DNA from: Gaiellales bacterium
GTDB taxonomy: Bacteria > Actinomycetota > Thermoleophilia > Gaiellales > JAICJC01
Assembly (NCBI GenBank): GCA_036494095.1
Contig: DASXOR010000075.1
Coordinates: 1 to 52,484 of the forward strand
Direction of reading: 5' to 3'
Length of the DNA: 52,484 bases
Position 1 is the stretch's first letter; each line of letters opens with the position of its first letter. The notes beneath the pieces were generated by a model, which had not been told where the DNA came from, made no database searches, and worked only from the letters and a program-made list of their open reading frames with translations. Shown here in pieces: positions 1,506 through 29,361 of this stretch. The position numbers and the translations under genes were made by a program.

Positions 1506-2003
1506 ATGCACGAGACGATGCAGGCTCGGGGCACCGAGCACGACTTCGATTTCTGGTTCGGCAGCTGGAACGTCAGCAACCGCCGGCTGCGCGAGCGGCT
1601 GGCCGGGTGCGAGGACTGGGTCGAGTTCGCGGCCACGTCCGAGGCCCGGCCGATCCTGGACGGCCTCGGCAACGAGGACGTGTTCCACACCGATCACGCC
1701 GGCGGCTTCGTCGGCATGTCGTTCCGGTTCTTCGACCCGGAGTCCGGGCTGTGGTCGATCTACTGGGCCGACAGCCGCCGCTCGGGGCTGCTGGATCCGC
1801 CGGTGATCGGCGGCTTCTGCGGCGACGTGGGCGTGTTCGAGGGCGACGACACCTTCGCGGGGGAGCCGATCCGGGTGCGGTTCGTGTGGTCGGGCGTGAC
1901 GACGCCGACGCCGCGCTGGGAGCAGGCGTTCTCCGATGACGGCGGCGACACCTGGGAGACGAACTGGATCATGGACTTCTCGCGGGAGGGGGAGACGCGA
2001 TGA
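1506..2003 (+). CDS. Conserved protein of unknown function, tandem paralog 1
   Basis: Start moved to ATG 1506 (GGGGGAG SD just upstream), which gives 165 aa, the same length as the downstream paralog. Shares DFDFW.G.W..NRRLRER.AGC..W.EF...LWSIYWADSR..GLL.PPVIGGF.GDVGVFEG.DTFAG with it. I recall the family as DUF1579-like, but this is not verified. Confidence 0.8.
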   Translation: MHETMQARGTEHDFDFWFGSWNVSNRRLRERLAGCEDWVEFAATSEARPILDGLGNEDVFHTDHAGGFVGMSFRFFDPESGLWSIYWADSRRSGLLDPPVIGGFCGDVGVFEGDDTFAGEPIRVRFVWSGVTTPTPRWEQAFSDDGGDTWETNWIMDFSREGETR

Positions 2004-4543: not shown

Positions 4544-5347
4544 ATGACCCAGAACCCGTTCGACTTCACCGGCCGGATCGCCCTCGTCACGGGCTGCGGG
4601 AGCGAGTCCGGCATCGGCCACGCCTGCGCCCGGCTGCTCGCCGAGCTCGGCGCGGGCGTCGCGCTGACGGCGACCACCGAGCGCGTCGAGGAGCGGGCGG
4701 CCGAGCTGCGCGCCGCCGGCGCGGCCGCAACGGCGCACGTCGCCGACCTGACCGTCCGCGAGCAGGCGTTCGCGCTCGCCGAGGCCGTCGAGCGGGCGCA
4801 CGGCCGCATCGACGTCCTCGTGAATGCGGCCGGGATCGCCCAGACAGGCATTCCCGCACCCGACGCTGCCTTTGCCGACCTCACCGCCGCGCAATGGCAG
4901 CGCGAGCTCGACGTGAACCTGATGACGGCGATCTACACGGCGCAGGCGGCGCTGCCCGGCCTGGTGCGGCGCGGCTACGGGCGCATCGTGATGATCTCGT
5001 CGGTCACCGGGCCGCTCGTGATGGCGCCGCGGCAGGCCGGCTACGGGGCCGGCAAGGGCGCGATGGACGGGGTCATGCGCTCGATCGCGCTCGACTACGG
5101 CCGCCACGGCATCACCGCCAACTCCGTCGCGCCGGGGTGGATCGACACGGCCTCGTCGCTCGACGACGAGCTCGTCGCGGCCCGCTCGACCCCGATCGGC
5201 CGCGCCGGCACCGCCCGGGAGGCCGCGGCCGTGGCCGTGTTCCTGGCGTCGGAGGCGGCCGGCTACGTCACCGGCCAGGTCTTCGTCGTTGACGGCGGCA
5301 ACACCATCCAGGCGCCGCACGGGATCGACCTGTACGGCGGTGGGTAG
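4544..5347 (+). CDS. Short-chain dehydrogenase/reductase (FabG-like)
   Basis: Start at ATG 4544 ([27 protein letters not shown], the TGxxxGxG cofactor motif). Catalytic YGAGK (YxxxK). 267 aa. Confidence 0.9.
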
Positions 5348-16867: not shown

Positions 16868-16901
16868 GGTGCCTGGCACCACAATCGCGGTGCCAGGCAC
16901 C
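16868..16901. terminator. Twin palindromes GGTGCCTGGCACC / GGTGCCAGGCACC (terminator-like)
   Basis: Starts 6 nt after the stop at 16862. Two 13-mers, each self-complementary and complementary to the other, separated by 8 nt. Same architecture as the GGGGCCWGGCCCC elements at 5.36 and 32.55 kb. Confidence 0.55.
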
Positions 16902-17106: not shown

Positions 17107-17140
17107 GCCAATTGGCATCCATGGTGGATGTCAATTGGGG
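17107..17140. repeat. Palindromic CCAATTG double-box element (fifth copy of the 28.5-kb repeat family)
   Basis: gCCAATTGGCATCCAtggTGGATGTCAATTGGgg. The two heptamers are 23 bp apart start to start (17108 and 17131), the same spacing as in the array at 28541-28721. Lies about 30 nt downstream of the SARP gene stop. Confidence 0.8.
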
Positions 17141-25887: not shown

Positions 25888-26625
25888 ATGACCAGCCAAC
25901 CCGACAACCGGGACGCCGCCGCATGGGCGCAGCCGATCGACCGACTGCAGGTGTCGGAGGCCGCCCCGGGAGCGCGCAACATCAACGTCGCCGGCCGCAG
26001 GCAGACCTCGCCCATCCAGGGGTTCGGGCGCATGTGGCAGAAGACCTACCGCATCCCCCTGGGCGGTGTGGAGATCGCTCCGGCCGAGGTGATCGACGTC
26101 TGGAAGCGGCACTTCCCCGAGTTCTGGCCGAAGGGCAACAGCTTCTTCGCGCCGCTTGCGGGCATCGCCCCCGGCGAGGTGGCCGCGCTTGACCTGACGA
26201 TGCCGGGCGGGCTCAAGCTCTCGACCGGCGTGCTCGTGCTCTACGCCGACGACGAGTCGTTCACGCTGATGACGCCGCAGGGCCACATGTTCGCCGGGTG
26301 GATCACGTTCAGCGCGTTCGCCGACGACGGCGTCACATATGCCCAGGCGCAGGTGCTGATGCGGGCGAGCGACCCCATGTACGAGCTGGGGATGACGCTC
26401 GGCGGCCACGGCAAGGAGGACCTGCACTGGTCGCACACGCTGCGCTCGCTGGCGGCCCATCTCGGCGCCGAGGGCGAGGTGACGATCCAGAGCGTCTGCG
26501 TCGACCGCGGCCGGCAGTGGTCGAAGGCCGCGAACATCTGGCACAACGCGGGGATACGCTCCGGCATCTACATGTCCGCCGCACCCATCCGCATGATCTC
26601 CCGGCCCTTCCGGCGGGGCGGCTGA
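25888..26625 (+). CDS. Hypothetical protein (possibly DUF1990-like; unverified)
   Basis: 245-aa ORF with a GAAGGGA SD and high GC3. No catalytic motif I can name. Starts 19 nt after the STAS gene. Confidence 0.7.
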   Translation: MTSQPDNRDAAAWAQPIDRLQVSEAAPGARNINVAGRRQTSPIQGFGRMWQKTYRIPLGGVEIAPAEVIDVWKRHFPEFWPKGNSFFAPLAGIAPGEVAALDLTMPGGLKLSTGVLVLYADDESFTLMTPQGHMFAGWITFSAFADDGVTYAQAQVLMRASDPMYELGMTLGGHGKEDLHWSHTLRSLAAHLGAEGEVTIQSVCVDRGRQWSKAANIWHNAGIRSGIYMSAAPIRMISRPFRRGG

Positions 26626-26629
26626 GGGG

Positions 26630-28048
26630 TTGCCCGACGCGGTCGTCGTCGGGGCGGGCCCGAACGGCCTCGCGGCCGCGGTCGAGCTTGCGCGCGCCGG
26701 CCGCTCGGTGCTCCTGTGCGAGCGGGCAGCGGCGGTCGGCGGCGGGGCGACGACGGCCGAGCTGACGCTCCCGGGGTACCGGCACGACGTCTGCTCGGCC
26801 ATCCACCCGCTCGCGGTCGGCTCGCCGTTCCTGCGCACGCTGCCGCTCCACGAGCACGGGCTCGACCTGATCGAGCCCGGCGTGCAGGCCGCCCACCCGC
26901 TCGACGGCGGCCGCGCCGCCGTGCTGCACCGGTCGCTCGAGGAGACGGCGGCGGGCCTCGGCGGGCGCGATGGCGCGGCCTATGCCGGCCTGCTGCGCCC
27001 GTTCGCCGAGGGATGGGACGACCTCGCCCCGATCGTGCTCGGCGCTCCCAGGCCGCCGCGCCACCCGCTGCTCGCCGCCAGGTTCGCGTGGTCGGGGATG
27101 CGAGGTGCGGCCGGCCTGGCCGCGGCCACGTTCCGGTCTGACGCGGGCAGGGCGCTCCTGGCGGGGATGGGAGCGCACTCGATGCGGCCGCTCGAGCGCC
27201 CGCCGACGGCCGGCTTCGCGCTGGTCCTGCTCGCGCTCGGGCACGCCGTGGGCTGGCCTGTGGCGCGCGGCGGCTCACAGGCGATCGCCGATGCGATGGC
27301 GGCGTATCTGCGCTCGCTCGGCGGCGAGATCCAGACCGGCCACGAGGTGCGCTCGCTGGCCGACGTGCCCGATGCGAGGGCGGTGCTGCTCGATGTGACG
27401 CCGCGCCAGCTCGTCGCGATCTGCGGCGACGAACTGCCGCCCCGCTACCGGGCCGCACTCGGCCGCTACCGCTACGGACCGGGCGTGTTCAAGGTCGACT
27501 ACGCCCTCTCGGCGCCGGTGCCGTGGGCGGCCGAGGCGGCCCGCCGGGCCGGGACGGTGCACGTCGGCGGCGCGCTGGCCGAGATCGCCGCCTCCGAGGC
27601 GACGGTCGTGGGCGGCGGCCATCCCGAGCGGCCGTTCGTGCTGGTTGCCCAGCAGAGCCTGGTCGACCCCGGCCGGGCGCCGGAGGGCCACCACACGCTG
27701 TGGGCGTACTGCCATGTCCCCAACGGCTCGACCGTGGACATGACCGCGGCGATCGAGCGCCAGATCGAGCGCTTCGCGCCCGGCTTCCGCGACGTCGTGC
27801 TCGAGCGCTCGGTGCGCGGTCCGGCGGCGCTCGAGGCCGAGAACCCGAACTACGTCGGCGGCGACATCAACGGCGGCGCGGCCGACCTCCGCCAGGTGCT
27901 CGCCCGGCCCGTGCTGCGGGCCTCGCCGCACGCGACGCCCAACCCGCGCATCTTCCTGTGCTCGGCGTCGACGCCGCCCGGCGGCGGCGTCCACGGCATG
28001 TGCGGCCACCACGCCGCGCGGGCGGCCCTGCGCGGCGTGCTGCGGTAA
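26630..28048 (+). CDS. FAD-dependent oxidoreductase, phytoene-desaturase (CrtI)-related family
   Basis: TTG start 5 nt after the upstream stop. N-terminal dinucleotide-binding VVVGAGPNGLAAAVELARAG...ERAAAVGGG. C-terminal STPPGGGVHGMCG is typical of this family. 472 aa. Confidence 0.85.
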   Translation: MPDAVVVGAGPNGLAAAVELARAGRSVLLCERAAAVGGGATTAELTLPGYRHDVCSAIHPLAVGSPFLRTLPLHEHGLDLIEPGVQAAHPLDGGRAAVLHRSLEETAAGLGGRDGAAYAGLLRPFAEGWDDLAPIVLGAPRPPRHPLLAARFAWSGMRGAAGLAAATFRSDAGRALLAGMGAHSMRPLERPPTAGFALVLLALGHAVGWPVARGGSQAIADAMAAYLRSLGGEIQTGHEVRSLADVPDARAVLLDVTPRQLVAICGDELPPRYRAALGRYRYGPGVFKVDYALSAPVPWAAEAARRAGTVHVGGALAEIAASEATVVGGGHPERPFVLVAQQSLVDPGRAPEGHHTLWAYCHVPNGSTVDMTAAIERQIERFAPGFRDVVLERSVRGPAALEAENPNYVGGDINGGAADLRQVLARPVLRASPHATPNPRIFLCSASTPPGGGVHGMCGHHAARAALRGVLR

Positions 28049-28091
28049 GGCCGCCCTCGGTAGGATTGCGGCGAGGACGCGAGGGGAGGCT

Positions 28092-28499
28092 GTGGGAAGC
28101 GCAGACGTGGTGCGGGAGTATCTGGCTCTGCTGCAGCGCCGCGATCCGGCGGGGCTGGACGTCGTCGTCGCCGAGGATGTGGTGGTGATCGGACCGGACG
28201 GCAGCACCGTCTTCTCCGACCGCGCGGCCTGGAAGCAGGCGATGGCTGACGAGCCGTTCACCGACGAGCGGATCGAGATCGACGATCTGGTTGCCGAAGG
28301 CGATCGGGTCGCGCTCCGTTTCCGCCTGACGGCCGTTCACAGCGGCACGGCGTTCGGAGTCGCCCCCACCGGCAAGCAGATCACCACCAGCGGCACGAAG
28401 ATCTACACCGTGAGGCACGGCCGGATCGTGCGCATCGCCGGCCACGACGACGTGCTGGGCCTGCTGCGGCAGCTCGGTCTGGCGGAGCTCCCGGTCTGA
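28092..28499 (+). CDS. SnoaL-like / ester-cyclase NTF2-fold protein
   Basis: 135 aa with a GTG start. VREYLALLQRRD...VAEGDRVALRFRLTAVHSGTAFGVAPTGKQITTSGTKIYTVRHGRIV matches the SnoaL-like polyketide-cyclase pattern. Confidence 0.8.
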   Translation: MGSADVVREYLALLQRRDPAGLDVVVAEDVVVIGPDGSTVFSDRAAWKQAMADEPFTDERIEIDDLVAEGDRVALRFRLTAVHSGTAFGVAPTGKQITTSGTKIYTVRHGRIVRIAGHDDVLGLLRQLGLAELPV

Positions 28500-28540
28500 G
28501 GTCGGATTGGTGCGGGCGGGCCGGCGCGGGGCGGGTGCGC

Positions 28541-28721
28541 TCAAATGACATCCGCGCCAACTGCCAAATGGCCGAGCGGCGCCAATTGACATCCACGCGA
28601 ACTGCCAATTGGCCGGATCGGCCGGCCAGCCCAATTGACATCCACGCGAACTGCCAACTGGCAGGATCGGCTCGCCCCGACGCCGCGGCCAATTGGCATC
28701 CGCGCGAACTGCCAATTGGTC
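28541..28721. repeat. Array of four direct repeats of a ~33-bp CCAATTG double-box unit
   Basis: Units at 28541-28573, 28581-28614, 28630-28663 and 28688-28721. Consensus CCAATTGrCATCCrCGCGAACTGCCAATTGG. The two heptamers in every unit are 23 bp apart. Inter-unit spacers are 7, 15 and 24 bp. Non-coding gap between the SnoaL-like and PAP2 genes. Confidence 0.9.
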
Positions 28722-28794
28722 ACAGCAGCGCCTCCGCCGGGGGGGGCCCCCTCCAATAGCCGCCCCCTGACGCTCGTCCATACTCCGGCGGCCC

Positions 28795-29361
28795 GTGGAA
28801 GCGCTCGACCGACACGTCGTGGAGTGGCTGGCCGGCCTGGATTGGCCGGTGGTGACCCCGCTGATGAAGGGCTTCACCTACGCCGGCGGCGCCGGTGCGA
28901 TCTGGATCGTCATCGGCGCGGCAGCGGCGGTCAGGCTCCGCCGTCCTCTGGTCTTCGTGGTGCTTGTCGTGTCGGTGCGGCTGTCGGCAATCCTCGACGG
29001 CGTGCTGAAGCGCGCGATCGGCAGGCAGCGGCCGCCACTTGCGGATCCCCGCGTCCACCCTCTGATCCCGCTCCCCCACGACCCGTCGATGCCGAGCGGG
29101 CACGCGATGATGGCCTTCACGGGCGCGGTCTTCCTGGCTGCGGTCGTCCCGCGATTCCGGTGGGCGCTGCTCGCGCTCGCGGCGGCGATCGGGCTCTCGC
29201 GCGTCTACCTCGGCGTGCACTATCCGAGCGACGTCCTCGTCGGTGCGCTGCTCGGGGCGGCGATCGGGGCGGTCGCGATTCCCGTGCTGGGCGTGGGGGA
29301 GCGGGCGCTGCGGTCGTGGCGCACACGGTCGCGCCGCCGCGACGCCGCCGCGCGGCGATAA
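28795..29361 (+). CDS. PAP2-family membrane phosphatase (phosphatidic acid / undecaprenyl-PP phosphatase-like)
   Basis: All three acid-phosphatase motifs: KRAIGRQRP, PSGH and SRVYLGVHYPSD. Several TM segments. GTG start. Confidence 0.88.
   Translation: MEALDRHVVEWLAGLDWPVVTPLMKGFTYAGGAGAIWIVIGAAAAVRLRRPLVFVVLVVSVRLSAILDGVLKRAIGRQRPPLADPRVHPLIPLPHDPSMPSGHAMMAFTGAVFLAAVVPRFRWALLALAAAIGLSRVYLGVHYPSDVLVGALLGAAIGAVAIPVLGVGERALRSWRTRSRRRDAAARR

Follow-up and report, generated by a model that had tools for sequence, protein, structure and literature searches.

To our knowledge, nearly all known cases of short interspersed repeats that have a protein of their own are REP-RAYT pairs of Proteobacteria. 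Among other dispersed repeats, the dRS3 element of Neisseria occurs in hundreds of dispersed copies and is the integration site of filamentous prophages, which use a Piv/IS110-type enzyme, and the HIP1 element of cyanobacteria is a single 8-mer that occurs about once per kb. Here, we describe a repeat family from a Gaiellales bacterium, starting from an array of four repeats located in a stretch of 52,484 nucleotides, which we refer to as "the window"; our literature search has found no description of this element, CCAATTGG. The explanation that we favour, with modest confidence, is that the array is a local group of four copies of a 31-bp repeat that is otherwise dispersed, and that the members of this repeat family are putative docking sites of a zinc-ribbon protein of ~160 amino acids.

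The array is located upstream of the gene of a PAP2 phosphatase; its four direct units, along with the other features of the analysis, are listed in Table 1. In the initial annotation, the array was described as four repeats of ~33 bp, each with two CCAATTG boxes 23 bp apart: four units are indeed present at this place, but their register is 31 nt, and only units 2 and 4 (both CCAATTGRCATCCRCGCGAACTGCCAATTGG) carry two exact boxes at this distance, while unit 3 has CCAACTG as its right box and unit 1 has TCAAATG on the left and CCAAATG on the right (TCAAATG...CCAAATGG). The extended match that it reported between units 2 and 3 is confirmed as a duplicated segment of 46 nt with 91% identity, and the G8C5 run that it placed behind the array is correct. 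It had noticed the palindrome CAATTG in the window only at the array and near 17.1 kb; in a count of CCAATTG on both strands, all 11 occurrences, against 0.86 expected (a ~13-fold excess), fall within the array and positions 17108-17138. The solitary unit at the latter position is found at the same place in the closest relative, G017, and is missing in G014. The best fold among the array copies is that of unit 4.

Table 1. Positions of the array, its units, the neighbouring genes and the related features in this genome (G000) and in others; positions without a contig or locus name refer to the window.
Feature	Position	Strand	Remarks
Array of 4 direct 31-nt units	28541-28719	+	start-to-start spacing 41, 49, 58
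Unit 1, decayed, TCAAATGACATCCGCGCCAACTGCCAAATGG	28541..28571	+	nhmmer E=0.0017
Unit 2, CCAATTGACATCCACGCGAACTGCCAATTGG	28582..28612	+	two intact boxes
Unit 3, inner sequence as in unit 2	28631..28661	+	right box CCAACTGG (CCAACTG)
Unit 4, CCAATTGGCATCCGCGCGAACTGCCAATTGG	28689..28719	+	two intact boxes
G8C5 run	28739..28751	.	3' of array
Solitary unit, fully palindromic subfamily, CCAATTGGCATCCATGGTGGATGTCAATTGG	17108..17138	.	30 nt past SARP gene stop
245-aa ORF, high GC3	25888-26625		upstream of oxidoreductase gene; no Pfam family matched
FAD-dependent oxidoreductase gene	26630-28048		upstream of SnoaL-like gene
SnoaL-like gene, 135 aa	28092..28499	+	upstream of array
~730-bp stretch (SnoaL-like gene, array and G/C run)	28049..28779	+	present in this genome alone
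568-aa ORF in oxidoreductase-PAP2 gap	within G017:C4:482800-485400		
568-aa ORF in oxidoreductase-PAP2 gap	within G014:C9:109700-112100		
Twin copy of GGTGCCWGGCACC	16868-16901		behind RibD_C-like gene
Copy of GGTGCCWGGCACC	within G000 contig C110:40-440		next to truncated Y1_Tnp (RAYT-like) gene
Zinc-ribbon protein gene	C138:4298-5083	minus	this genome; paralogue on C141
GTGACCCAC-N-GT(K)AC site	L200 about 1960-1975		upstream of zinc-ribbon gene
GTGACCCAC-N-GT(K)AC sites	L201/L202 about 1960-1975		upstream of zinc-ribbon gene
GTGACCCAC-N-GT(K)AC site	L285 940-965		upstream of zinc-ribbon gene

The array is spanned as a whole by one soil contig of an independent assembly (Logan X1, 1054 nt), and in a second assembly the break falls within the array. 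The X1 contig, which comes from the same soil population, differs from the window only around the G/C run, where G and C are exchanged at three positions (28736, 28740 and 28750) and 4 nt are deleted at 28744. Units on contigs C138, C227 and C40 are likewise followed by G- or C-runs. The sequencing runs that contain this stretch of the window are DNA runs only.

The search was extended to the whole genome assembly (2.71 Mb in 232 contigs, 64% complete, 72% G+C), where the pattern CCAATTG-N14-18-CCAATTG gives 43 strand hits, as opposed to none for the reversed control. Allowing up to one mismatch per box, together with a profile search, we have found ~45 units at 29 loci, i.e. 0.017 units per kb (~17 per Mb), nearly all of exactly 31 nt and of the form CCAATTGRCAKYC-N5-GRMTGYCAATTGG: two inverted CCAATTGRC half-sites with their CAATTG cores 23 bp apart. 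Of the 105 CAATTG sites in the genome, 73 are paired at 22-23 bp, compared to 0-9% for seven other hexamers. Many of the 32 unpaired CAATTG sites are GCAATTGC, which may be a box type related to the GTGCAATTGCAC palindrome family. When the units are aligned, no sequence information is left directly beyond the 31 nt, and the comparison of the flanks has revealed neither a target-site duplication nor a larger element around the unit.

Near-identical copies are found at unlinked loci, and nine of the 29 loci are clustered, each with 2-4 units. In these clusters, either segments of 49-76 bp are duplicated in tandem, or the units form chains with boxes common to adjacent units, the boxes following each other every 22-24 bp. 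The units are mostly intergenic and sometimes located inside genes; nine occur in divergent, seven in convergent and ten in tandem gaps, according to gene calls by GC3 phase that are crude, several of the "intragenic" calls being intergenic on inspection. Three of the units in convergent gaps have been confirmed by reading the ORFs.

Within the genus, the pattern was found in 21 of the 24 genomes, with 0-58 strand hits each, and it is essentially missing from the other families of the order; among 400 scanned genomes of the class, it appears again only in several genera of one other family. Where public records name relatives, these are soil MAGs assigned to Gaiellales or Thermoleophilia. Both the outer CCAATTGRC and the length of 31 nt are constant across genomes, while the inner arms vary by genome (GGCATCC/GGATGCC here, GGCCGTCG/CGACGGCC or GGCCACG/CGTGGCC elsewhere), i.e. 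the consensus of the unit is genome-specific. Such differences of the inner arms between genomes are typical of amplifying elements and count against the reading of the units as docking sites. Within the genus, the inner arms show no copy-by-copy covariation (z about 0); across the class, the units are clearly symmetrical at positions 8-11 but only weakly so at positions 12-13, which pair in less than half of the copies. Neither result separates a hairpin from a symmetric protein site. Relatives differ in how many units they have at the promoter of nhaA and past the end of the SARP gene. A distribution of the units that avoids the terminus of the complete relative chromosome was considered and rejected, as a 1-Mb gap among 12 sites has P about 0.6 (hand calculation).

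With respect to the history of the locus, the genes upstream of the array, which had been taken for a sensor operon, are the SnoaL-like gene and the gene of the FAD-dependent oxidoreductase, preceded by the ORF without a Pfam family. Conservation at the locus had been proposed as a check: neither the SnoaL-like gene nor the array is found between the oxidoreductase and PAP2 genes in any of the 30 sampled genomes of the genus, where both of these flanking genes are conserved. The distance from the oxidoreductase stop to the PAP2 gene is ~24-45 bp in the relatives with both flanks matched, with the exception of the two closest relatives (G017 and G014), where an unrelated gene of 568 aa is located in the gap, with no units. 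The gap is, in this sense, an insertion hot spot, occupied by the SnoaL-like gene and the array in this genome, and by the 568-aa ORF in its two closest relatives. In G017, an 81%-identical SnoaL-like gene is located at a different place of the chromosome and is followed, 41 nt past its stop, by a single intact unit, the orthologue of unit 1. The alignment of the two genomes begins at the start codon of the SnoaL-like gene and ends at the exact outer end of unit 1, and from these limits we conclude that the gene and the unit have moved as a single block. No unit or remnant of a unit occurs at the left end of this block, or at the empty site in the relatives. Units 2-4 are later local duplications.

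The units that are located inside genes show that the boxes are conserved where a coding sequence has to accommodate them. The identities of these genes are our own reading of their translations. In a 245-aa esterase gene, a chain of units runs across the GHSAGG active-site region, and the first unit is read as CAA-TTG and CCA-ATT in all five orthologues (78-92% protein identity): codons CAA, CCA and ATT are identical in the tabulated sequences, and codon TTG is identical in the aligned codons. By comparison, only 45% of the codons of conserved residues are identical in all five orthologues. The four box codons account for 1.6-2.9% of their codon families, and, besides the three of them that end in A or T (CAA, CCA and ATT), only two of the 16 other A/T-ending codons are retained in all five; a more distant orthologue, used as the outgroup, has CAC-CTC and CCG-ATC instead. 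The same conservation of boxes through rare codons is seen for an intragenic unit of mobA in ten species from the unit-poor half of the genus. The boxes inside genes are under selection that is independent of coding needs.

In-frame units also occur in a methionyl-tRNA synthetase gene and in the linker of a glycosyltransferase. The region of mobA that contains the unit has homologous counterparts in mobA genes without a unit, from which it differs by a net +6 nt. A disruption of mobA by a 31-nt insertion in G011 was considered and rejected: the difference is a single extra base, and the gene is in frame in the nine other species. The extra base is a G (G011:C8, L155 about 1545-1555) that shifts the frame just before the unit, and it is either an assembly error or the mark of a pseudogene.

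A candidate for the protein partner of the units was found on contig C138, where a cluster of three units (5168-5316, at the contig end) is located 85 bp upstream of an ORF that starts with MALPTLYKARGVPVKQPVCAICADRTRG. The encoded protein of ~160 aa combines an N-terminal CxxC...CxxH zinc ribbon with a C-terminal helix-turn-helix-like tail. Its family comprises 725 homologues, typically of 159-170 aa, and is small, with only 295 clusters at 50% identity among 1.84 billion proteins; residues C19, C22, C44 and H47 are invariant, and the C-terminal motif PPSxRTxxRWHxxRRW is conserved. Sequence and fold searches of Pfam, NCBIfam, PHROG and the PDB returned no significant relative, the match to the Excisionase-like/HTH family being weak (PF07825, E=0.001, below cut-off), and no catalytic motif is recognisable. 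The predicted model is confident at about residues 13-155 (pLDDT near 80-90). In this clade, the protein is called with 247-261 aa, there being no stop codon at the usual end near 160 aa; this extension overlaps a convergent gene and has a pLDDT below 50, and therefore is probably not part of the folded protein.

The association of the units with this gene recurs outside this genome. A 92%-identical relative has the identical arrangement of three units upstream of the gene, and a 65%-identical homologue, located in another genomic context, has five units with the variant boxes CCATTTGG/CCACTTGG. Upstream of the paralogue on contig C141, a variant unit is located at a distance of about 100 bp, where 0.01 would be expected by chance. 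Across 80 metagenome loci, 41 units were counted within the 450 bp that precede the genes (28.9 kb in total), i.e. 1.42 per kb, and seven units within 450 bp downstream (typically at +73), i.e. 0.22 per kb; two units occur inside the genes and two in the 91 kb of the far flanks, with a density of 0.05 per kb in the gene and the far-upstream flank, the far-downstream flank containing none. At one locus, nine boxes precede the gene with an exact period of 23 bp. For 61 of the metagenome loci, the upstream sequence covers 250 bp or more; units precede the gene at 23 of these loci, and the canonical unit is missing there at the other 38. Two syntenic orthologues (69-72% identity) also have no units at the gene. 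Consequently, the protein either can do without units close to its gene or recognises other boxes.

The enrichment could alternatively mean that the zinc-ribbon gene is regulated through the units by another factor, or that it is located in an insertion hot spot. In several lineages, a short inverted repeat, GTGACCCAC-N-GT(K)AC, precedes the start codon of the zinc-ribbon gene by 25-40 bp; this repeat is distinct from the CCAATTGG units and may be a core promoter or a second operator.

Taken together, the best reading of the units is that of an iteron-like family of candidate protein-binding sites. The zinc-ribbon protein, which is encoded outside the window on contig C138, would bind the units, and the units that precede, and often follow, its own gene would allow it to control itself, in the manner of an iteron-binding protein. 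One unit reached the present locus within the block that it forms with the SnoaL-like gene, 41 nt behind this gene, and the three further copies then arose at the array through local duplication. Several dimers may sit side by side on the resulting array, which may in turn affect transcription from the SnoaL-like gene towards the PAP2 gene as a roadblock, an insulator or an activator site. The routes to new sites have been partly seen: units are duplicated locally, are transferred along with the genes next to them, or result from point changes within genes. The multi-site platform with paired half-sites that the initial annotation had envisaged is the idea best supported in kind, through the phased arrays of up to nine boxes that some relatives have in front of the gene of the candidate protein, but the array is not the operator of this particular locus.

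That the array is a locus-specific operator or iteron array, through which a regulator of the window (SARP, IclR or WYL) controls the SnoaL-like or the PAP2 gene, is suggested by its position between two genes and by the second copy behind the SARP gene; with ~45 units being spread over 29 unrelated loci, and the array and the SnoaL-like gene being absent from the site in 30 of 30 genomes that conserve its flanks, we regard a private operator as refuted and this explanation as almost certainly wrong. A decayed MITE cluster, also suggested earlier, finds no support: the unit has only 31 bp instead of the usual 50-500 bp, there is no target-site duplication, and no insertion sequence with these ends was seen. 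The scatter of copies that had been named as the sign of a generic REP or MITE is seen in part, but it is accompanied by a clear intergenic bias and by a protein partner.

A classical REP or REPIN, i.e. a single-stranded DNA hairpin that is copied by a REP-associated tyrosine (Y1/HUH) transposase and whose clusters are BIMEs, would account for a short, imperfect palindrome that is dispersed, mostly extragenic, clustered at nine of 29 loci, near-identical at unlinked loci and genome-specific in its consensus, and a Y1_Tnp gene does exist in this genome. Nevertheless, we consider this very improbable. The single Y1_Tnp gene of this genome is truncated, and the complete relative chromosome has two Y1 genes; no CCAATTGG unit is located within 1.5 kb of the Y1 genes of either genome, and the Y1 gene of contig C110 and its orthologue in the complete relative adjoin the GGTGCCWGGCACC palindrome instead (with one mismatch in the relative). 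Y1 genes and units do not vary together in number among 31 genomes of the genus: unit-free genomes have 3-4 Y1 genes, while three unit-rich, incomplete genomes have none. Moreover, the boxes are kept within coding sequences, and the chains of 23-bp direct repeats share boxes, so that they cannot all fold. The GGTGCCWGGCACC palindrome, with 97 exact copies in the genome and 150 when one mismatch is allowed, is commoner than the CCAATTGG family, and it probably forms, together with Y1_Tnp, the true REP-RAYT pair of this lineage. Hairpin folding and the copies between convergent genes fit a REP-like hairpin role equally well as they fit protein docking.

If the units acted instead as RNA-level stem-loops at gene ends, in transcription termination or in the protection of mRNA 3' ends, their stable hairpins (-6 to -19.5 kcal/mol, z-scores -3.6 to -6), the copies between convergent genes and the one copy that provides a stop codon would be explained. 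This is quite improbable, as the array and its surroundings (28400-28900) contain no terminator-like site and no U-tract, the gap contains no known RNA family of Rfam and no promoter, and the transcribed (+) strand of the array is the weaker fold (unit 2: -6 vs -12.5 kcal/mol for the other strand); the structured RNA of the initial annotation finds no support, with neither an Rfam match nor a terminator tail. Divergent, i.e. promoter, gaps hold as many copies as convergent ones, and it is the CAATTG sequence and its spacing that are conserved rather than the pairing, as positions 12-13 illustrate. For each of the REP-RAYT, MITE, terminator and private-operator readings, at least one tested feature is missing.

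Two further explanations give the units a part in the movement of genes. They could be att-like recombination sites of a dispersed gene-cassette system (cf. integron attC and pdif), with the zinc-ribbon/HTH protein being excisionase-like, as its match to PF07825 might suggest. Two genomes have the SnoaL-like gene and one unit at different loci, with homology that stops exactly where the unit ends on its outer side; in G011, direct unit copies enclose an insert of 714 bp that contains a 199-aa ORF, where the sister species G009 has a single unit; a P-loop gene lies between two units upstream of recO; units are located where synteny breaks off past the SARP gene and in front of nhaA; and the layout of 13+5+13 resembles that of recombinase core sites. 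These points are opposed by the missing unit at the left end of the SnoaL block and at the empty site of the relatives, by the 568-aa gene that occupies the same gap in the two closest relatives without any unit, by the neighbourhoods of the 29 loci, in which no recombinase was noticed when the ORFs were read by eye, by the unit sequence, which does not have the attC core GTTRRRY, and by the conservation of the boxes in the active-site region of the esterase, which is unexpected for att sites; overall, recombination sites appear improbable.

We also consider it unlikely that the protein and its 31-bp sites form a new self-propagating partnership, a non-HUH counterpart of REP-RAYT in which the protein would help to copy or recombine the units and the genes adjacent to them. 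If true, this pair would be a chromosomally dispersed cassette-exchange system in Actinomycetota, and the genes that it would have moved along are the SnoaL-like gene, the P-loop kinase-like gene and the 199-aa ORF.

Under the favoured reading of docking sites, a repeat family of a poorly known, uncultured soil lineage is tied to a different, wholly uncharacterised, small putative DNA-binding protein. Selection maintains the repeat even within coding sequences, and small accessory genes move together with it. The association provides a testable function for a protein family without annotation, as well as a handle on the turnover of gene content in Gaiellales-like bacteria, and it warns annotators that arrays like 28541-28719 are not local operators.

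The comparison with the described systems places the units between several of them. Like HIP1, they have a palindromic core (here CAATTG) that occurs both in genes, through rare codons, and between genes; unlike HIP1, their boxes are nearly always paired at 23 bp, amount to ~17 units per Mb and are mostly intergenic. They share with the dRS3/NIME repeats of Neisseria the short terminal inverted repeats around a variable centre, the intergenic arrays and the association with variable gene content, but they differ in sequence and lineage, and neither a Piv/IS110-type enzyme nor a prophage was seen here. The likeness to the iterons of Rep initiators and to centromere-like arrays lies in the repeats that are phased at 23 bp, with up to nine boxes, upstream of the gene of the presumed binder, and in the boxes being palindromic half-sites; in contrast to these arrays, the sites occur chromosome-wide (at ~29 or more loci), with no replication or partition genes nearby. 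The REP/BIME and REPIN-RAYT systems of E. coli and Pseudomonas (PMC3116915, PMC3337134) resemble the units in having an imperfect palindrome in dozens of dispersed copies, which are mostly extragenic, form local clusters and follow a genome-specific consensus, and in the dedicated, single-copy protein gene that is flanked by the repeats. Unlike these systems, the units described here have no GTAG-type head, are conserved inside coding sequences and form 23-bp arrays with shared boxes, and the gene that they flank encodes a zinc-ribbon and HTH-like protein of ~160 aa rather than a Y1/HUH transposase.
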